Assembly: GCA_965197465.1 (NCBI GenBank)
Contig: OZ240209.1
Coordinates: forward strand, 948,713 to 1,012,712
Direction: 5' to 3'
Length of the DNA stretch: 64,000 bases
Source: Candidatus Poribacteria bacterium
GTDB taxonomy: Bacteria; Poribacteria; WGA-4E; JAJDTR01
The notes beneath the pieces were generated by a model. It was not told the origin of the DNA. It saw only the letters and a program-made list of their open reading frames with translations, and made no database searches. A program made the position numbers and the translations under genes. How positions within the stretch are numbered: the stretch's first letter is position 1; every line of letters begins with the position of its first letter. Shown here one piece after another: positions 5,961 to 46,276 of the stretch.

Positions 5961-6121
5961 AGAGCCTGTTTGAATAATCGGTAGCAGAGCCATTCTTGGT
6001 CGCTTATAGGAAGTTCCTTCATGCTTTTATTGTTGTCGGCTGTGTACCTGTCGCCCCTCTGGGGCTTTTAGAGGCTGGTGCGCAGTGCGCACCCTACAAA
6101 TGTACTTTTCAAACAGGCTCT
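5961..6121. mobile_element. MITE-like non-autonomous element, copy 1 (161 bp, no internal sub-repeats)
   Basis: It has perfect 14-bp terminal inverted repeats, AGAGCCTGTTTGAA (5961..5974) and TTCAAACAGGCTCT (6108..6121). The left module is ..aataatcggtagcagagccattcttggtc. The right module is ctctggggcttttagaggctggtgcgcagtgcgcaccctacaaatgtac, and it contains a GTAG-headed REP palindrome at 6077..6097 (minus orientation). Confidence 0.6.
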
Positions 6122-6250
6122 CAAGATGATGTTTAGCAAAAACGGGACATCGAACGCAAAGTCGAACCCAAACACACCAATTATGAAAGCATAGCAGGTA
6201 TGAAACGATTATGTCAACAAATTATGTCAACGTGGTTCTTTGGAAAATGA

Positions 6251-6279
6251 TTGCAAACTATTCCTACTCTTGATATAAT
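6251..6279 (+). promoter_or_regulatory. Candidate sigma70-type promoter (TTGCAA-17 nt-TATAAT with a TG extended -10)
   Basis: ttgcaa is at 6251..6256 and tataat at 6274..6279, with a 17-nt spacer and tg at 6271..6272. It lies ~50 nt upstream of the ADH start at 6328. Confidence 0.4.
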
Positions 6280-6327
6280 CCAATTTATGCGAATGACACT
6301 CAATGCGCCTATAAGAGGAGACATTTC

Positions 6328-7368
6328 ATGAACATAATGAAAGCGGCAATTTACTCAGGGGTTGAGAAGATTGGGATTCAGGAGGTTGACCGGAGTAAGC
6401 CGGCAACGGGCTATATCGTATTAGATACCAAGCAGACCGGAATCTGCGGAAGCGATCTTCACAGTTATTTTGGAGAGTGGCCACAGTCAGACACGCTGGC
6501 AGCCGGGCATGAGACCTGCGGTGTCGTTGCTGAACTGGGCGAAGGAGTCACCAAGTTCAAAGTCGGCGATAAAGTTACGGCTGAATGTTTCTCACACTGC
6601 GGGCAATGCGTTTTCTGCCGAAAAGGCCATTATAACCACTGTACAGCGAGAAAATGGATTTCGCATGATGCACATGGCGGATTCGCCGAATATACTATTC
6701 TACATGAATCAGGATTGTTCAAGTTGCCCGACCACATGAGTTTTGAAGATGGAACGCTTGTTGAACCACTCGCGGTTTCACATCGAGCCGTGGCGCGGGC
6801 AAATGTGAACGCCCGGAATACCGTCGCGATTATAGGCGGTGGGACAATTGGTCAGCTCTGCTTAGCAGACGCGGTTGCAGTCGGCGCCAGGGAGACGTTG
6901 ATTACTGTGAAATATGAGCGGCAGGCGCAACTCGCCAAGGAACTTGGGGCAGATCACATTGTGAACGTCCGCGAGACCGATGTCACGAAATATGTTGATG
7001 ATATCACCGGTGGTCTAGGTATTGACGCAGTGATAGAGACTGTGGGTGGTGGTCAGAATTTTGACTGCGCCATGGCGATGGTCAAGCCGTGTGGTTTCGT
7101 TGTTCTTGTCGCGGGATATTTTAAGCCGCTTGAGGTGAATCTTTCCCGAGTTGTCTGGTCAGAAGCAATTGTCACTGGCTCTAGCTGTTACGGTTTCAGC
7201 GGGATGGAAACGGACTTTGAAGCCGCTATAGAGCTAATCGACTCGGGTAAGGTTGACGCAAAGAAACTGGTAACGCACCGATTTCCACTGACCGAAATTG
7301 CTGAAGCATTCGAGACTGCCGCAGACAAGCAATCGGGGTCAATCAAGGTGCATGTCTGCCAACCGTAA
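6328..7368 (+). CDS. Zinc-dependent alcohol/polyol dehydrogenase (MDR family, threonine/sorbitol dehydrogenase-like)
   Basis: 346-aa ORF. Motifs are GICGSDLH, GHETCGVV, the structural-zinc Cys cluster CFSHCGQCVFCRKGHYNHC, and the Rossmann motif IIGGGTIGQ. Confidence 0.8.
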   Translation: MNIMKAAIYSGVEKIGIQEVDRSKPATGYIVLDTKQTGICGSDLHSYFGEWPQSDTLAAGHETCGVVAELGEGVTKFKVGDKVTAECFSHCGQCVFCRKGHYNHCTARKWISHDAHGGFAEYTILHESGLFKLPDHMSFEDGTLVEPLAVSHRAVARANVNARNTVAIIGGGTIGQLCLADAVAVGARETLITVKYERQAQLAKELGADHIVNVRETDVTKYVDDITGGLGIDAVIETVGGGQNFDCAMAMVKPCGFVVLVAGYFKPLEVNLSRVVWSEAIVTGSSCYGFSGMETDFEAAIELIDSGKVDAKKLVTHRFPLTEIAEAFETAADKQSGSIKVHVCQP

Positions 7369-7453
7369 ACCACGAGACTTCTTACAGTGCAGAATAGCAC
7401 AACATCCCTCGGAGAGTAATCTCACCCCGGATGACTTACAGTCATCAACAAAA

Positions 7454-8221
7454 ATGCAGACAGATGTCAAGATACTTGCCCATCGCGGCGGGATGGGGCG
7501 CGCTCCCGAAAATACCATCGCGGCGTTTCAACAAACACTTGATGATGGGGCAGACGCCTTTGAGTGCGATGTCTGTCTAACGCGGGATGAAGAACCAATC
7601 CTAATTCATACGAAGTTCGACGATGACGACATTGAACCCGTGACAGGCTGTGCGACGCCGCTTCGTGAGTTGGATTGGGCAGATGTTCAGAACCTCCATG
7701 TACTGGATTCGAAGCAACCTGTGGCACACCTTGACCAGATGTTGACCTTTGTTGAAGAGACAGGGCTGCCATGCTTCCTAGAGCCGAAGAGCAACTCAGA
7801 AAAACTTACCTCTATTGTCGTGGATCGGATACGGCGATTTAACCTTGATGACAAGGTAGGTGTGTTGACCTTTTACTCCCATCGACAAGTGCTAATTCGC
7901 GTCAAGCGAATCGCACCCAATATCAAGACAAGCGCAATCATCCTCAATCCAATGGCAAACTTTCTCAGAGTCGCCAAAATCATCAGTGCAGACCGCATTA
8001 TTATTGGCTGGAGTGGCTTGAATCATTTTGCTTTCTACAACTTGCTCATTCGGTCACTGCCCCGAAAAGTCGGGCAACTCAACGCGGAAGGAATCTCTAT
8101 AGAGGGCGGATTTGTTCAGAGCCTGCAGGATGTTAAGTGGGCGCTGAGGAACGAAATTCGAAGATTGTGGACAGATGATGTACCGGAAACACGCGCGTTT
8201 ATACAAGATATCAAAGCGTGA
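7454..8221 (+). CDS. Glycerophosphodiester phosphodiesterase (GDPD) family protein
   Basis: The ORF-track frame is 7298..8221. The first 52 codons overlap the ADH gene and are not GDPD-like. The internal ATG at 7454 gives MQTDVKILAHRGGMGRAPENTIAAF...ECDV, the canonical GDPD N-terminus. Confidence 0.7.
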   Translation: MQTDVKILAHRGGMGRAPENTIAAFQQTLDDGADAFECDVCLTRDEEPILIHTKFDDDDIEPVTGCATPLRELDWADVQNLHVLDSKQPVAHLDQMLTFVEETGLPCFLEPKSNSEKLTSIVVDRIRRFNLDDKVGVLTFYSHRQVLIRVKRIAPNIKTSAIILNPMANFLRVAKIISADRIIIGWSGLNHFAFYNLLIRSLPRKVGQLNAEGISIEGGFVQSLQDVKWALRNEIRRLWTDDVPETRAFIQDIKA

Positions 8222-28524: not shown

Positions 28525-28842
28525 TCAACTTTGGTCAACCACATCCTGAATCCAAGAGAGCGCCGCCATACTTGGAGACCAACCGATGGATGTTACCGCA
28601 AGTAGCGCGATTTGCCGTAACTCCTCCGGGCTAATTCCTTGTTTCAAGGCACGGCGAGTGTGCGAGTGTACCGCACCTTCCGACTTCGCGCCAACGGCAA
28701 GCGCAAGTTTAACGAGTCGGACTGTCTGCTCGTCTAGCGGTCCAGCGTCGCTACACGCCTCACCAAAATCCTGATACGCCTTCCATACCTCCGGATATTG
28801 TTTGATGACTCCTTCAAGAAAATCTGGTAGCTTCTCCTTCAT
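28525..28842 (-). CDS. Carboxymuconolactone decarboxylase (AhpD-like) family protein
   Basis: 105-aa ORF with a CMD-like helical pattern (LDEQTVRLVKLALAVGAKSEGAVHSHTRRALKQGISPEELRQIA). The CxxC of true AhpD is absent, replaced by SEGAV. Confidence 0.55.
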   Translation of the reverse strand: MKEKLPDFLEGVIKQYPEVWKAYQDFGEACSDAGPLDEQTVRLVKLALAVGAKSEGAVHSHTRRALKQGISPEELRQIALLAVTSIGWSPSMAALSWIQDVVDQS

Positions 28843-35209: not shown

Positions 35210-38200
35210 GTGTTAGAGAAAGAGATGGCAAAGAGAAAAAGGGGGAAACCAGGCTTAAAGGCAGACCGCACGCGTCAAGCACATAATTCGCTAAGGGGAT
35301 ACCTCTATCAAATTTGGCATAGTGTCAATGCGTGGCTGGAGCTTGCAGAAGATGAGATTCTCTATTTGGAAGGTGCGGAGGACTTTGACAAAGTATCAGA
35401 TAACAACGCTGCGGTGACGCAAGTCAAAGCCACACAAGCCCCGATCACGCTTAGATCTCGGGACGTGAATGACGCTATTAACCACTATTGGGAACTGCGG
35501 ACGAACAATTCCGACCGGAGTGTAAATTTCCGTTTTCTCACATGCGCCAAGATAGGTGTAGAACAAGGAAATCCATTTGGAACAGGTAACCCGGGGCTTC
35601 AGGTCTGGAGCCGTTGTTCGGGAAATGAAGAAAGTATCAAAAAAATCTCCGACTTTTTGCAAACTGAAGGAAAGATATCCGAAGAAGTAAAAGATTTCCT
35701 CAAACAAGCTGAACCGCGAGAAATCTACGAACAACTCATTGAACCTGTTACTTGGGAAACGGATAGCAAACCCGCCAGGTTTGTTGTGCAATCCATACGT
35801 ACGACTCTTGTTCACCATGGTGACCGATACAGTATTCCACCTGCTGATGCTGAAAAGGTTGTTGATAATCTTCTCAAAGAAGTTTTGACAATAGCAACGG
35901 AGGAGGAAAATCGTACACTAACCCGAGAACACTTTTTGAGAATATTTGCCGAAAATACAAGAATAAGCCTTCCAATTCAGAATAGTTCAGCGCATCAACC
36001 GATACAGCTAAAGATCGTTCTTGATCATATTAAAGAAACACTCATTGCAGAGCCAGCCGATTTTAGTTTTGCATTTCAATCTCCAGTACAAAAGACGATT
36101 CCACCACTCTATCGTGATGTTACTCTAAGAGAAAACTTACTTACAAGCATCCAAGCCAAACTTCAATCAGAGGGCATAGTTGCCATTCATGGAGGAGCAG
36201 GGAGAGGAAAGACAACACTTGCAAAATTGACAGCTAATGCTATGGGGGGCTGCTGGTTTTGGCTGAGTTTCACAGATAGAGATTCATCTCAGATTGGCAA
36301 ACTTTTACAGCAACTTGCAGTTGAAGTCAGTAATCAATCTGAACAAATCAACATCGTTTTGGATGACTTAGACATACAACCTCAACAATTGCGCGAGTAT
36401 GAAGAAATGTTGGGGGTTCTGGTTTATAGGGTACTGGAACGTGGCGCAAAACTGCTGATTACAAGCCAGCATAAGCCACCTAATAGCCTTATCCGCCAAC
36501 TTGATGTCTCACCATCCATCGTCGTCCCTGTTCCAGACTTTACCTTATCCGAAATTGAGCAATTTGCCGAACGATTGGGATGCCCCGCAGATGACGCCAA
36601 GACTTGCGCACCATTGATTCAATTGCATACCAGCGGACACCCGAGGCTTGTGCACGCTCGACTCGCTCAATTACGTGAGGAAGACTGGAAGCCGCCAGAT
36701 ACAATTGAGGGTATCTTGCACACGCCCCTAGAGGTGGTTGAAGAACGTGAAACTGTGCGACAATTGCTCACAGAATTGCCGGATAATCATCAGGAATTTC
36801 TCTATAGACTGAGTTTGATGACTACTGAATTTAGAAAAGATTGCGCGGTCAACATCGGCGAGATACCGGAATCTGTACCTTATGCAGGGGATATTTTTGG
36901 TCAATTGGTTGGTCCTTGGATAGACCGTGTTAATGAATCCTACTACACAATCTCACCTTTACTGACCAATGCAGCCAAGCAAGTTTGGTCAGAGAGTAAG
37001 ATAAACGACCTTCACGCTCGGATTGCAGATGCAATTCTCAAAACAGGAAATCTGACCATATTAGAAGCACGGGCTGTGCTATTTCAAAGTATGCTTGGAC
37101 AAAACGAAATAGGCTTTATTGCTGTGATTTACGCATTGATAACCGCTCCGGAGGACAGTTGGGAAGAACTCAGCCGAGAATTCTCTTGGTTGATACTCGC
37201 TCAACCTGACATTCCCGAAAAGTTCTTTCCTGGGAACGATTCTGTAAATCATCTATTTCGCTCATTGCAATATCGTATTGCGGTCGAGGTAGAACCGGAA
37301 AGAGCGCCGAAGATACTTGAAATTTGGGATAAAGAAACCAAGCCGCACGAACCACATCAGTTGTATCTGTTGAATCGCCTAATGCTGGCAACGCAGGCAT
37401 TAATTTATTATCAAGTATCACTCCCGGCCAAGCAGATGGTAGGATATCTTAAAGAAGTTGCTGATATCACATGCAACAATAAAGACATTCAAGAAATATA
37501 CGATGATTCCATGGGACAATTGGAAGAACACGAAACTGACACAGCCAACTATTTCAGTTTTCTATTTAGTTTTGTTGTGGCACGTCGTCCTATTTACCCT
37601 CCATTCCTCAGTGACCTTATTGACGCCCTTGACGAGCTTCCAGCAAAAATTCGCACACTGTTATTGGCTGATTTCGAGGATGACAGTGTTGACTCTCGGC
37701 TTTTGATCGATGGTGTCTGGTGGTCAGAAGTAAACCGTGAGAATCCGGATTGGCAAAGATGTCTCCAGGTATTTGACAAAGTCATTGAAAAAGCTCTCGC
37801 CTGGGGTTATCCCCATCTGGCTGCGGCATCTGCAAGGAGTAAAGCCATTATTCACTATGAAAACCTGCATAATCCTGATGCCGCCCATAAAGTTCTCCAA
37901 GATTTTGTATCAAAAGTGGGGACATTACCAGTAATCGAGCGAGAACAAGCCAATGTATATTTGAGCCAAAAGCGTTACAAAGAAGCGCTCAGCATCTACG
38001 AGCGTATTCTCCCCGAGTGGAATCTATCTTCAGAAAAATTAGGCATTGGGCCTCTAGAAGAATATCGTCGAGCCGCTATTTGCGCCGCACATTTGAACGA
38101 TTGGGAGAAGGCGGCTACCTTTTTTGAAGCTGGAGCAAAAATAGTTCAAGTGATTGAGCACACTGAAATTAATATTGGTTTGTATGCAGATGCGGGATTC

Positions 38201-39502
38201 GCACATTTTAAGGCAGGCAATATGCTGGAGAGCACAAAGTTGTTAAATTTGGCATTGCAAGAATTTGAAAAGATGCCACAAGACAATACGGATATCAAGT
38301 ATTTTTCATTAAAACAACGTTTAGCGCACACCATAAGATGGATGGCAGAACAGAGCTGTGAAAATAATCCTTCAGAACTTGAAGAACCTCCAGTTGGTAT
38401 GTGCAGCAATCCGGAGCCAAATGAAAAAAATTCGACCCTTCCTGACTTCCCAATGGGATACGTTTGGTTCTACCTAGCGCAAATCGAGTTCAGATTTGGG
38501 TATGGAACAACAGTGTTGGAGCATGCCATGCGGATCTTAGACCGAGATGCATATCCTGCATTTAGTTCTCTTCTTGCTCCCCTTAAAATACAATATGATT
38601 TTAGAAACAAAACCTTTAATGAGTTGCCGGAACGTATACAGCAATTGGCGAATGCGTGTGACTCAATGCAGAATCATAAACTAAGCGGGACAGGGATTGA
38701 AGAACATAGAGTCAATTCTATACCTATTGCCAATCTACCCAACTTCGGTTCTGTTCCGAACATCATATCTATTTTGGGATCATCCCTTCTTGTCCGACTA
38801 CGAACAAGCAATAATGTGCAGGACATGCTGGTTATATGGCGATCAAAGTCTTCAGAATTACCCATAAAAGAAAACCTCATCGTTGCTCTTGATTTAATTG
38901 AATCAATGTTATCCAAAGATCTGAGTAACGCTTTGACAATTATGCACTCACAAAATTCCAGGCACGAAAACCGGCTTGCCGCAACATTAAAAATTGTTCA
39001 CAGTATTCAGACCAGTCCAGATAATCTCTTTTATGCCCACGTACTCATAACGACTGCACTCATTGGTAACTTATGGGAAGATTTTGTCGTGCTTGATTTA
39101 GCAGAGCTTCTTTCCGCGCAGTGGCTTGCAAAAATAAAATTCCCGGCGATGTTGAAAACACCTATGATTACGGTGCCCTTAATAGAACAAGCCTGTAAGG
39201 GCAGCGACACCGGAAAGAAAAAAATTGGCAAGATTCTTCTCGCCGCGCATCAAGCTATTTCACTCAGAGTGCCATCTACGACTTTACAACAGTTTCGCAG
39301 TTGGACAGAAGCTATACCAGAGCAAAAGCAGGAGCCGAAAATCGGACAGAATCCGATAGCACAACAGATCATCAAAGTGATGGAGAATCCACCGCATTTA
39401 ACCGATGAAGACGTTGAAGCAATGCGGCAGTCGATTGAGGAAGGGAAAATGCCTGTAAATTTCGATTCAATCTTTGATCAGGACGAATCTGAAGACCAAT
39501 GA
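35210..39502 (+). CDS. Large STAND-type P-loop NTPase with an N-terminal PD-(D/E)xK (DUF4297/Cap4-like) nuclease domain and C-terminal TPR-like helical repeats (Avs-like architecture)
   Basis: 1430-aa ORF with a GTG start in the track; ATG at 35225 (MAKRKRGKPG...) is the more likely start. The N-terminal LRGYLYQIWHSVNAWLEL..LYLEGAEDFD..VTQVKAT fits the GxxYQ / E-x2-ED / QxK layout. Walker A is IVAIHGGAGRGKTTLAKL (36191..36217) and Walker B is NIVLDDLD (36350..36373). TPR-like helices include YLSQKRYKEALSIYERIL, YRRAAICAAHLNDWEKAATFFEAG and GFAHFKAGNMLESTKLLNLAL. Confidence 0.65.
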   Translation: MLEKEMAKRKRGKPGLKADRTRQAHNSLRGYLYQIWHSVNAWLELAEDEILYLEGAEDFDKVSDNNAAVTQVKATQAPITLRSRDVNDAINHYWELRTNNSDRSVNFRFLTCAKIGVEQGNPFGTGNPGLQVWSRCSGNEESIKKISDFLQTEGKISEEVKDFLKQAEPREIYEQLIEPVTWETDSKPARFVVQSIRTTLVHHGDRYSIPPADAEKVVDNLLKEVLTIATEEENRTLTREHFLRIFAENTRISLPIQNSSAHQPIQLKIVLDHIKETLIAEPADFSFAFQSPVQKTIPPLYRDVTLRENLLTSIQAKLQSEGIVAIHGGAGRGKTTLAKLTANAMGGCWFWLSFTDRDSSQIGKLLQQLAVEVSNQSEQINIVLDDLDIQPQQLREYEEMLGVLVYRVLERGAKLLITSQHKPPNSLIRQLDVSPSIVVPVPDFTLSEIEQFAERLGCPADDAKTCAPLIQLHTSGHPRLVHARLAQLREEDWKPPDTIEGILHTPLEVVEERETVRQLLTELPDNHQEFLYRLSLMTTEFRKDCAVNIGEIPESVPYAGDIFGQLVGPWIDRVNESYYTISPLLTNAAKQVWSESKINDLHARIADAILKTGNLTILEARAVLFQSMLGQNEIGFIAVIYALITAPEDSWEELSREFSWLILAQPDIPEKFFPGNDSVNHLFRSLQYRIAVEVEPERAPKILEIWDKETKPHEPHQLYLLNRLMLATQALIYYQVSLPAKQMVGYLKEVADITCNNKDIQEIYDDSMGQLEEHETDTANYFSFLFSFVVARRPIYPPFLSDLIDALDELPAKIRTLLLADFEDDSVDSRLLIDGVWWSEVNRENPDWQRCLQVFDKVIEKALAWGYPHLAAASARSKAIIHYENLHNPDAAHKVLQDFVSKVGTLPVIEREQANVYLSQKRYKEALSIYERILPEWNLSSEKLGIGPLEEYRRAAICAAHLNDWEKAATFFEAGAKIVQVIEHTEINIGLYADAGFAHFKAGNMLESTKLLNLALQEFEKMPQDNTDIKYFSLKQRLAHTIRWMAEQSCENNPSELEEPPVGMCSNPEPNEKNSTLPDFPMGYVWFYLAQIEFRFGYGTTVLEHAMRILDRDAYPAFSSLLAPLKIQYDFRNKTFNELPERIQQLANACDSMQNHKLSGTGIEEHRVNSIPIANLPNFGSVPNIISILGSSLLVRLRTSNNVQDMLVIWRSKSSELPIKENLIVALDLIESMLSKDLSNALTIMHSQNSRHENRLAATLKIVHSIQTSPDNLFYAHVLITTALIGNLWEDFVVLDLAELLSAQWLAKIKFPAMLKTPMITVPLIEQACKGSDTGKKKIGKILLAAHQAISLRVPSTTLQQFRSWTEAIPEQKQEPKIGQNPIAQQIIKVMENPPHLTDEDVEAMRQSIEEGKMPVNFDSIFDQDESEDQ

Positions 39503-44672: not shown

Positions 44673-45074
44673 CTAAATAGCCAACACAGTCAACCAATAT
44701 ACGTACGCAGCGTAGGCCAATCCGGATACTGTCATGGCGCATGCAACACTTTTCATCACGAGACTTGATCGTCCTGTTTTGGTAAAATGAAAAGCGATAT
44801 GATTCAGAAGCAACATCAACGCCACTACGAGGTTCAACAGGATTACGGATTGGGGATAACTAGAGTGTCGGGTATAGAAGTAAAAAATGACATTGAAGCC
44901 AAGCAGACAAAGAATTATCGCCAAGTATCCATATTTCCACACAGTTCCAATTGGGTCGGTTATCTCCGCTTCTGTGCCTTTTTTGACGATTTCTCTAACT
45001 ATCTGGTGTTTCCGCTCTTGATCGTCAATCTTGATCTGTAGTTGCCGTTTTTCGGCCTCGGTGAACTGCCTCAT
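44673..45074 (-). CDS. Hypothetical small membrane protein (3-4 TM segments)
   Basis: The track ORF is 44673..45218. The likely start is the internal ATG at 45074 (MRQFTEAEKRQLQ...), followed by hydrophobic segments YGYLAIILCLLGFNVIFYFY, LLNLVVALMLLLNHIAF and VACAMTVSGLAYAAYVYWLTVLAI. Confidence 0.4.
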   Translation of the reverse strand: MRQFTEAEKRQLQIKIDDQERKHQIVREIVKKGTEAEITDPIGTVWKYGYLAIILCLLGFNVIFYFYTRHSSYPQSVILLNLVVALMLLLNHIAFHFTKTGRSSLVMKSVACAMTVSGLAYAAYVYWLTVLAI

Positions 45075-45380: not shown

Positions 45381-45722
45381 TTAATTCTCCACTGTTGCCT
45401 CGAAACCAGCGCCAGTAACAGCAGACGCCAATGTGTCGGCAGTAACCTTGCCGGATTCAATTTTTATGACGGCTCTATCTGGAAGCGAAACAGCCGCATC
45501 GGTAACGCCAGCAATTTCAGAAAGTACAGCCTGCACTTTCGAAACACAGGCACCTCACGTCATATTCGACACGGACAAAGTAATTTCCTCCATTGCGGCG
45601 ACCGCCGTTTTTGATGCTTGAGGAATATCGGTTTTCTCAGTGCTCGCCTTCTTTTCCGACTGACATCCAAGTACCATGGCAATCATGAAAATACAGACTA
45701 GCAGCAACCGAGTAGTGCGCAT
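45381..45722 (-). CDS. Lipoprotein with a heavy-metal-associated (HMA) domain; probable selenoprotein with UGA-encoded Sec in place of the first Cys of GMTCxxC
   Basis: Track ORF 45555..45752 ends ...EEITLSVSNMT at TGA (45555..45557). The same frame continues without a stop as GACVSKVQAVLSEIAGVTDAAVSLPDRAVIKIESGKVTADTLASAVTGAGFEATVEN to TAA at 45381..45383, giving a complete beta-alpha-beta-beta-alpha-beta HMA domain reading NMT-U-GAC. The start at 45722 gives MRTTRLLLVCIFMIAMVLGC (signal peptide plus lipobox). Confidence 0.7.
45515..45544 (-). promoter_or_regulatory. Candidate bacterial SECIS hairpin, starting 11 nt 3' of the in-frame UGA
   Basis: Hand fold of UUUCGAAAGUGCA-GGC-UGUACUUU(C)UGAAA. 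This is a ~13-bp stem with one bulged residue and a GGC apical loop. The upper stem-loop is conserved in the paralog. Confidence 0.4.
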
Positions 45723-45765
45723 GTCTGTCCACCTCCTTTCAAAAGGAATCAAATTTGACTCCTAA

Positions 45766-46125
45766 TCAATTGGCAGCCTTAGCGCCAAATCCCGCGCCTT
45801 CAACGGCGGCGGTCAGATCAGCGGTCGAGACCTTTCCGGGTTCGACGTTAATGGTAGCTGTCTGCAGGTTAACGTTCACATTGGTAACTCCGGGGAGGTT
45901 CGTAAGTGCAGCCTGCACTTTGGCGACGCAGCCTCCTCACGTTACACCTGTGAGACTCAATTTCACTTCTTCCACTTTCGCTGCCGCTGTCGCCGTGTCA
46001 GTCTGTACCGCATCCTGGGCTTGTGCCGGTGCCGGTGACGCCTCGGGAGCCGCCATTTTCTTGCTGCATCCCATCACGACTATCGTTGCAACAAAGCAGA
46101 TTAGTAACGCCCTAATAATACGCAT
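45766..46125 (-). CDS. Lipoprotein with a heavy-metal-associated (HMA) domain; probable selenoprotein (paralog 2)
   Basis: Track ORF 45937..46125 (MRIIRALLICFVATIVVMGC..., lipobox VMGC) ends ...VKLSLTGVT at TGA (45937..45939). The frame continues GGCVAKVQAALTNLPGVTNVNVNLQTATINVEPGKVSTADLTAAVEGAGFGAKAAN to TGA at 45766..45768, reading GVT-U-GGC at the metal-binding CxxC position. Confidence 0.7.
45898..45927 (-). promoter_or_regulatory. Candidate bacterial SECIS hairpin of paralog 2
   Basis: Hand fold of GUCG-CCA-AAGUGCA-GGC-UGCACUU-A-CGA(A)C. The upper 7-bp stem plus GGC loop is identical to paralog 1, except that one G-C pair replaces a G-U pair. Confidence 0.35.
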
Positions 46126-46246
46126 TTTAATTCTCCTTCTTTCCTGAATAGGGATTTAAACCCCGTGGCTGGGGACTCCTCCTGATTCTATCTGAATTGG
46201 CGCTCGGTTGTCAAGCCCTATTGTCTTGGTGTTTGGAGAATAATAC

Positions 46247-46276
46247 TTGACAGCCGAATCAGAAACAGAGTAAAAT
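46247..46276 (+). promoter_or_regulatory. Candidate sigma70 promoter (TTGACA-18 nt-TAAAAT)
   Basis: ttgaca is at 46247..46252 and taaaat at 46271..46276, ~30 nt upstream of the ThDP-enzyme ATG at 46307. Confidence 0.4.

Follow-up and report, generated by a model that had tools for sequence, protein, structure and literature searches.

Tandem HMA-domain lipoproteins of Candidatus Poribacteria with an in-frame UGA at the first metal-ligand position: predicted UxxC selenoproteins

In a 64,000-nucleotide stretch of a Candidatus Poribacteria genome (GenBank assembly GCA_965197465.1, contig OZ240209.1, positions 948,713 to 1,012,712 of the forward strand; hereafter the window), two neighbouring reading frames break off at a TGA codon precisely where HMA domains carry the first cysteine of their metal-binding motif, which raises the question of whether the genes are truncated or whether the TGA is read as selenocysteine (Sec). 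An earlier note on this DNA had favoured the latter, describing the frames as two tandem HMA-domain lipoproteins with an in-frame TGA at the first Cys of GMTCxxC and as probable selenoproteins of the UxxC type. The architecture was borne out by read-through translation, by matches to Pfam family PF00403 and by alignment with structures in the PDB. Judging from the sequences and their homologues, it is very likely that the products of both genes, here named geneB and geneA, are selenoproteins; support for this assignment comes from the TGA codons of homologues, selection on the codons beyond, a conserved hairpin, a Cys-containing homologue and a standard genetic code. The features of the pair are as follows.

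45766..46125, minus strand: geneB, full-length predicted selenoprotein gene, 119 codons (read-through translation, Pfam HMA, 8 orthologues)
46066..46125, minus strand: geneB signal peptide and lipobox VMGC, the Cys to be lipidated being residue 20 (sequence)
45937..45939, minus strand: geneB UGA, predicted Sec codon 63, first Cys position of GMTCxxC (alignment, homologues)
45787..45954, minus strand: geneB HMA domain, residues 58-113 (Pfam PF00403, 49.9 bits; PDB alignments)
45381..45722, minus strand: geneA, full-length predicted selenoprotein gene, 113 codons (read-through translation, Pfam HMA, 10 orthologues)
45663..45722, minus strand: geneA signal peptide and lipobox VLGC, Cys at residue 20 (sequence)
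45555..45557, minus strand: geneA UGA, predicted Sec codon 57 (translation, homologues)
45399..45581, minus strand: geneA HMA domain, residues 48-108 (Pfam PF00403, 46.8 bits)

geneB starts from an ATG at 46125 and runs on past the in-frame TGA for 56 codons until a TGA stop (45768..45766), while geneA, whose ATG at 45722 lies 43 nt downstream of geneB, runs on for 57 codons until a TAA stop (45383..45381); the same-frame HMA continuation described in the earlier note is there, its count of 57-58 codons being off by a trivial amount. The TGA falls in the context ...KLSLTGVT-U-GGCVAKVQ... in geneB (motif UGGC) and ...TLSVSNMT-U-GACVSKVQ... in geneA (motif UGAC). Both proteins match PF00403 above its gathering score of 24.8 bits (E = 4e-12 for geneA and 4e-13 for geneB) with U at the first Cys of the metal-binding loop, and the X written for the TGA falls in the column that holds the first Cys of GMTCxxC in all of the solved HMA domains retrieved, namely those of ATP7B, Bacillus subtilis CopA, CopZ, the MerA N-domain and MerP. 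The two proteins share 38% identity and are therefore old paralogues. Each carries an N-terminal signal peptide ending in a bacterial-lipoprotein lipobox, recognized by the sequence pattern [LVI][ASTVI..][GAS]C only; the motifs VLGC and VMGC given by the earlier note were recovered, with the Cys at position 20 in both proteins. A low-complexity linker of ~30-40 residues, rich in Ala, Pro and Gln in geneB, joins the lipobox to the HMA domain in both products.

Homologues were collected by scanning one genome per GTDB species with the degenerate pattern ACN TGA GGN GSN TGY GTN NNN AAR GTN CAR. It gave 88 stretches, of which nearly all carry the label Candidatus Poribacteria; because the pattern demanded K-V-Q, a distribution confined to Poribacteria is not proven. 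One hundred genes with an in-frame TGA, from ~80 genomes, were extracted from the scanned loci, and four further TGA motif matches occur in the same loci, three of which are clear extra copies. The TGA is invariant at the motif codon in 94 of 94 unique homologous segments, and a regular-expression search found no Cys-containing copy in the fetched Poribacteria loci. Over the 55 codons past the TGA, the ratio of nonsynonymous to synonymous substitution rates (dN/dS) was 0.12 among geneA orthologues (n = 10), 0.09 among geneB orthologues (n = 8) and 0.14 in a larger form of the family (~532 amino acids [aa]; see below), with dS values of 0.57-0.88 across the three groups. These low values indicate that the frame beyond the TGA is translated and under selection. 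The genes are intact, each with an in-frame UGA followed by conserved, selected coding sequence, and the opinion of the earlier note that they are not pseudogenes is well supported. The neighbours of the pair in the window are syntenic with several homologue loci, at 81-86% nucleotide identity, and the window therefore most likely belongs to a Poribacteria genome outside the set of species representatives.

The TGA codons themselves are secure. The sequence of the region (745 bp) is the same in four contigs, which come from two ENA assemblies, have a coverage of 12-37x and include ones of 5.96 and 6.52 Mb. The genetic code of the host is standard, TGA ending 15 of the 42 long open reading frames (ORFs) in the window; the earlier note had argued against a reassigned code from the ordinary stop at 39500..39502, and rightly so. 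That stop closes a 1430-aa ORF (35210..39502, plus strand) whose product combines an NPHP3_N (NTPase-type) N-terminal region with TPR repeats. geneB uses TGA twice, as predicted Sec codon 63, with a hairpin after it, and as true stop codon 120, without one. In public gene calls, both genes are cut into pieces of 62, 50 and 55 aa (L091-L094, 2249..2819).

Folding of the RNA after each UGA, where the earlier note had proposed a run of bSECISearch or the like, disclosed a hairpin resembling a Sec insertion sequence (SECIS) in both genes.

45892..45936, minus strand: geneB SECIS-like element, with upper hairpin AAGUGCA-GGC-UGCACUU at 45904..45920 and lower stem GGAGG:CCUCC (folding)
45520..45540, minus strand: geneA SECIS-like hairpin GAAAGUGCA-GGC-UGUACUUUC, 9 bp, -9.6 kcal/mol (folding)

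The shared hairpin, AAAGUGCA-GGC-UGYACUU, begins 15 nt past the UGA in geneA and geneB alike, with stems of 7-9 bp (-7.4 kcal/mol in geneB) and an apical loop GGC whose G lies 24 nt past the UGA. In the bacterial SECIS (bSECIS) model, the apical-loop G stands roughly 16-37 nt from the UGA, and the stem-loops of both genes fall within this range. Conservation at silent sites follows the hairpin: among the 94 unique segments, the entropy of third positions does not exceed 0.2 bit over the K-V-Q-x-A codons (+6 to +10) and is 0.88 bit at the next Leu (+11), which together encode the hairpin, against ~1.3-1.9 bits at most other fourfold-degenerate codons. The search pattern had left the third positions of the hairpin codons free, and the 3' arm of the hairpin lies wholly outside it. 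Pairing in the helix amounts to 96.8% over 84 distinct sequences, as compared with 15-46% when the partner strand is slid; pair 24:32 is G:C in 74 of them, G:U in six (including geneA) and A:U in four. Since this is the one pair with compensatory changes, the evidence at the RNA level is mainly the conservation of silent sites. The loop and upper stem may be akin to those of the Escherichia coli fdhF SECIS (UGCAGGUCUGCA). A terminator called in geneA (45529..45551, minus strand) consists of the SECIS stem followed by U-rich codons and was regarded as a probable false call.

A Cys-containing counterpart was found outside the fetched loci. A word-indexed protein search with geneB returned a single match, P0001, a metagenomic homologue in which the gene caller had put W at the TGA; short fragments are apparently absent from that database. 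When P0001 served as the query, HMMER found among 1.84 billion representative proteins P0038, a protein of 110 aa with 66% identity to P0001 and a lipobox VIGC, which reads GMVCGAC (GMVCGACQAKVQ) at the motif; its gene (L090, 65..397) has TGC at the position of the Sec codon. The comparison with Cys homologues proposed in the earlier note thus gives a matching column, P0038 and all of the solved HMA domains having Cys where geneA and geneB have the UGA. The DNA of P0038 keeps most of the SECIS-like hairpin (AAAGUGCAGACUGCGCUU), which suggests that Sec and Cys have lately been exchanged at this site.

The machinery for Sec insertion is supported at the level of the phylum only, from the literature. 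COG matches to SelA (two), SelB (one) and SelD (one) are listed for Ca. Poribacteria WGA-3G (Slaby et al. 2017, Table S4), and contig ASZN01000001 of WGA-3G corresponds to locus L067, which carries a member of the present family. A 2026 study describes Sec-type group 4 hydrogenases in Poribacteria. Sec insertion into the products of geneA and geneB is accordingly inferred.

On the proposed mechanism, the UGA at the first metal-ligand position would be decoded as selenocysteine during translation, the hairpin (AAAGUGCA-GGN-UGCACUU, with its G-rich apical loop ~24 nt from the UGA) recruiting SelB and its Sec-tRNA(Sec) in the manner usual for bacteria. The motif of the product would then be U-x-x-C instead of C-x-x-C. 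Once the protein is exported and lipidated at Cys20, the flexible linker of ~30-40 residues would tie the HMA domain to the membrane on its periplasmic side, where the selenolate/thiolate pair may bind a soft metal, with Cu(I) and Hg(II) the likeliest candidates, or else cycle as a selenylsulfide. Taken as a whole, this account, in which intact, lipid-anchored HMA proteins carry Sec in a soft-metal or selenylsulfide site, appears quite likely to be correct.

Several observations nevertheless weigh against it. None of selA, selB, selC and selD was found in the 64-kb window by ARAGORN, by Rfam or by Pfam scans of its 49 ORFs, and ARAGORN detected no tRNA-Sec either there or in 60 related loci. 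The hairpin shows little covariation, being mostly invariant apart from the single pair noted above; no Rfam family matches the window, and the 63-nt fold of geneB is no stabler than that of shuffled sequence (z = 0.12). Finally, no gene for the transport of copper, mercury or another metal lies beside the pair, in the window or in the syntenic loci.

The family extends beyond small lipoproteins such as geneA and geneB, which account for only 25 of the recovered genes. All 25 of these full-length small homologues have a lipobox with its Cys near residue 20, and tandem pairs of small genes are present in 11 loci. Some 62 Poribacteria genomes encode, instead of or besides the small form, a secreted protein of ~532 aa in which a PSCyt1 domain (planctomycete-type haem-c) and a WD40 propeller are followed at the C-terminus by an HMA domain that has U-x-x-C, its gene carrying the hairpin seen in the small form (examples within the L002-L089 range include L023, L067 and L086, the last at 6008..7609). 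The gene for this larger protein clusters with those of a WD40 paralogue, a PSCyt2/PSD1 (DUF1549/1553) protein and a DUF1501 protein, which come after it. Locus L010 encodes the large protein in a variant with a pair of HMA domains in succession, each of which has its own in-frame TGA (5923 and 6145, plus strand), so that the product would contain Sec twice. Another small Sec-HMA lipoprotein, of a third type, is encoded divergently from a multihaem cytochrome c of ~830 aa with MtrC/MtrF-like and Cytochrom_C domains in two loci (L013, 1827..4307; L061, 5494..7998). In L054 this place is taken by a clustered homologue (7238..7999), which is cut by the end of the locus and was not scanned. Neither the ~532-aa WD40 form nor the lipoprotein form appears in a 2026 review of the prokaryotic selenoproteome.

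How well do other explanations account for these data? Were the TGA a plain stop, or the genes pseudogenes, the products would be lipopeptides of 56 and 62 residues trailed by a decaying HMA-like remnant, much as public gene callers present them when they annotate separate pieces of 62, 50 and 55 aa. Such decay is scarcely credible given that ~100 genes show neither a stop nor a frameshift in the 55-57 downstream codons, that dN/dS remains at 0.09-0.14 for a dS of 0.6-0.9, that a TGA which ought to vary at a decaying site is invariant, and that the codon recurs in both paralogues and in yet another architecture; the same conservation and selection among homologues answer the concern, raised in the earlier note, that the region might be a degraded gene. 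The idea that the TGA is a sequencing or assembly error for TGC or TGT, or a sense codon throughout the genome (code 4 or 25), has the W of one public gene call as its sole point in favour and can be given practically no credence: the codons are the same in four contigs of two assemblies at 12-37x, which disposes of the doubt about read errors that the earlier note had entertained, they recur in ~80 independent genomes, and TGA terminates 15 of 42 long ORFs as well as geneB itself.

Recoding of the UGA as something other than Sec requires closer attention. A published selC* tRNA (tRNA-ReC) reads UGA as Cys through the Sec apparatus, so that a SelB- and SECIS-dependent tRNA of this kind could place Cys at the motif, and the Cys homologue P0038 has nearly the same hairpin; near-cognate read-through by Trp or Cys would be another route, for which the W called in one homologue might be quoted were it not merely a software choice of code table. 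We hold such recoding to be very improbable, as the upkeep of a SECIS in ~80 species would be costly if Cys, one mutation away as TGC, sufficed, and as a Poribacteria genome with a family member possesses SelA, SelB and SelD and further Sec proteins are reported in the phylum. A different proposal accepts the selenoproteins and takes their U-x-x-C to be a redox-active selenylsulfide coupled to periplasmic c-type cytochromes, whether in a metal or metalloid reductase module or in thiol/disulfide exchange. It draws on the ~62 genomes in which the same Sec-HMA and SECIS are fused to PSCyt1 haem-c and WD40, on the divergent multihaem cytochrome c genes of L013 and L061, and on the fact that most known bacterial selenoproteins are redox proteins according to review; fold and motif are nonetheless those of a metal-binding HMA domain, no cytochrome gene lies beside the pair in the window, and the cytochrome fusion is found in paralogues and not in geneA or geneB. 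This makes a redox function unlikely for the pair, and we keep it open because the paralogues are repeatedly linked to c-type cytochromes.

Returning to the preferred explanation, Sec-containing lipoproteins with a metal site, both fold and motif, together with the nearest structures, suggest that the domain binds a soft metal ion: among PDB sequences, geneB is matched best by the metal-binding domains of copper ATPases, and the nearest structural-sequence matches overall are Cu-ATPase metal-binding domains and CopZ, followed by the MerA N-domain and MerP. The lipobox and linker would hold the HMA domain at the membrane on the periplasmic side. A role in periplasmic soft-metal binding or transfer is, in our estimation, somewhat more probable than other roles combined. 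The metal and the partner proteins are inferred only, because no metal-transport gene adjoins the pair.

The neighbours of the pair are an RtcB protein, a thiamine pyrophosphate (TPP) enzyme, RlmL, an aminotransferase and a small protein with three predicted transmembrane helices (3-TM). Pfam scans identified no sel, cop, cus or mer genes among the 49 ORFs of the window, whose sole candidate for metal homeostasis is an outer-membrane efflux protein 6 kb away. The gene of the 3-TM protein (133 aa; 44673..45074, minus strand) follows immediately on the HMA pair in 8 of 10 syntenic loci, a synteny among close relatives, and two paralogues in tandem are the usual arrangement there. A His in the second helix of the protein is conserved, and there is no Pfam or NCBIfam match to it. 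A part as a MerT-like partner was considered; the protein has no family match and no conserved Cys, and, the synteny being among close relatives, it is kept as a lead.

Upstream of the pair, a candidate promoter was noted.

46185..46214, minus strand: sigma-70-like promoter, TTGACA - 18 nt - TAGAAT, 11/12 matches (consensus match only)

This element lies ~60 nt upstream of the geneB ATG. Shine-Dalgarno sequences precede both start codons (GGAG and AGGAGG, the latter before geneA), and geneB and geneA are co-oriented and probably co-transcribed. Two back-to-back sigma-70-like promoters, each with 11/12 matches, occupy 46185..46276, one directed toward the HMA pair and the other toward the TPP-enzyme gene. 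The window was also scanned for other selenoprotein genes, using frames of at least 40 codons on either side of a TGA; there were many raw matches, and the gap candidates at 28772, 14380 and 60334 were dismissed as junk translations or as overlapping real ORFs.

The earlier note could not say whether Sec-containing HMA lipoproteins of this kind had been catalogued. The occurrence of Sec at the metal-ligand position of an HMA motif is already established, since reviews and NCBIfam hold such entries: prokaryotic selenoprotein reviews of 2022 and 2026 list a UxxU metal-binding protein with two Sec residues (NF041115), a UxxC cation-transporting ATPase and a MerT-type mercuric transport protein, and NCBIfam holds NF045683 besides. 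The lipoprotein UxxC form, in contrast, is not in the curated lists checked, and full-text literature searches for related terms returned nothing closer than the reviewed Sec-HMA entries. Neither protein reaches a curated NCBIfam cut-off, best scores being 47-65 bits against cut-offs of 85-95.

Among the closest Sec proteins is NF041115 ('UxxU_metal_bind'), labelled 'putative mercuric reductase' in an Olavius symbiont study and included in the table of the 2026 review. Like geneA and geneB, it is a stand-alone HMA-type domain in which Sec replaces a metal-ligand Cys of CxxC, and it is the second-best NCBIfam match to their products (E = 1.8e-12 and 1.7e-13). It differs in having two Sec residues (UxxU) in a model of ~74 residues, where geneA and geneB have one (UxxC) together with a lipoprotein signal and linker; their scores of 47-59 bits (36-59 over five members of the present family) fall short of its cut-off of 95, so that they do not belong to it. 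The UxxC P-type ATPase (E1-E2) shares Sec as the first Cys of an N-terminal HMA motif; there, however, the HMA is a cytoplasmic domain of a large pump, whereas geneA and geneB encode free-standing, exported and lipid-anchored proteins of ~115 residues (113 and 119) with no ATPase domain. NF045683, a MerT/CopZ fusion-like heavy-metal transport selenoprotein, likewise has an HMA module of the CopZ kind, but joined to a MerT membrane domain, of which geneA and geneB have no counterpart; it is matched weakly, at 20.7-28.8 bits against a cut-off of 375.

Of the Cys proteins, MerP (TIGR02052) is likewise a small exported HMA protein with a GMTCxxC-type site on the periplasmic side, and its working model, the capture of a soft metal and its handing on, is the one we propose for geneA and geneB. 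Unlike them, it has Cys, a cleaved signal peptide without a lipobox and a mer operon with merT and merA; geneA and geneB score 30-41 bits, and the family 30-55, against a cut-off of 92.55, and there are no mer genes in the window or in the syntenic loci. The CopZ/Atx1 chaperones (NF047957, NF033794, NF033795) resemble geneA and geneB in fold and motif, and CopZ_AFE_1862 is in fact the best NCBIfam match (47.7 and 59.8 bits). CopZ proteins are cytoplasmic, have Cys and usually stand beside copA, as opposed to geneA and geneB with their export signal, lipobox and Sec and no adjacent copA; scores for the CopZ families are 42-65 bits against cut-offs of 85-95.

In the genomes of Poribacteria, major symbionts of sponges, such genes are systematically mistaken for short fragments, and their architecture is one that had been missing from the catalogued selenoproteins of prokaryotes. 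Sec at the metal-ligand position of an exported, membrane-tethered protein is unusual and offers a natural test case of Sec versus Cys in metal binding or oxidation resistance outside the cytoplasm. The near-universal presence of these genes in the phylum would imply a steady demand for selenium in the symbionts. As a more speculative and rather doubtful extension, the tandem lipoproteins, the haem-c/WD40 protein with its Sec-HMA C-terminus, the two-Sec version and the small genes beside multihaem cytochromes could be parts of a lineage-wide periplasmic seleno-HMA module in Poribacteria, its selenolate/thiolate site serving as the working end of an extracytoplasmic system of electron transfer or of metal(loid) reduction and trafficking without a described counterpart. 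The fusion to cytochrome and WD40 domains hints at an undescribed periplasmic process, and the interest of the family would be all the greater should its cytochrome-linked forms reveal that this process depends on selenium.

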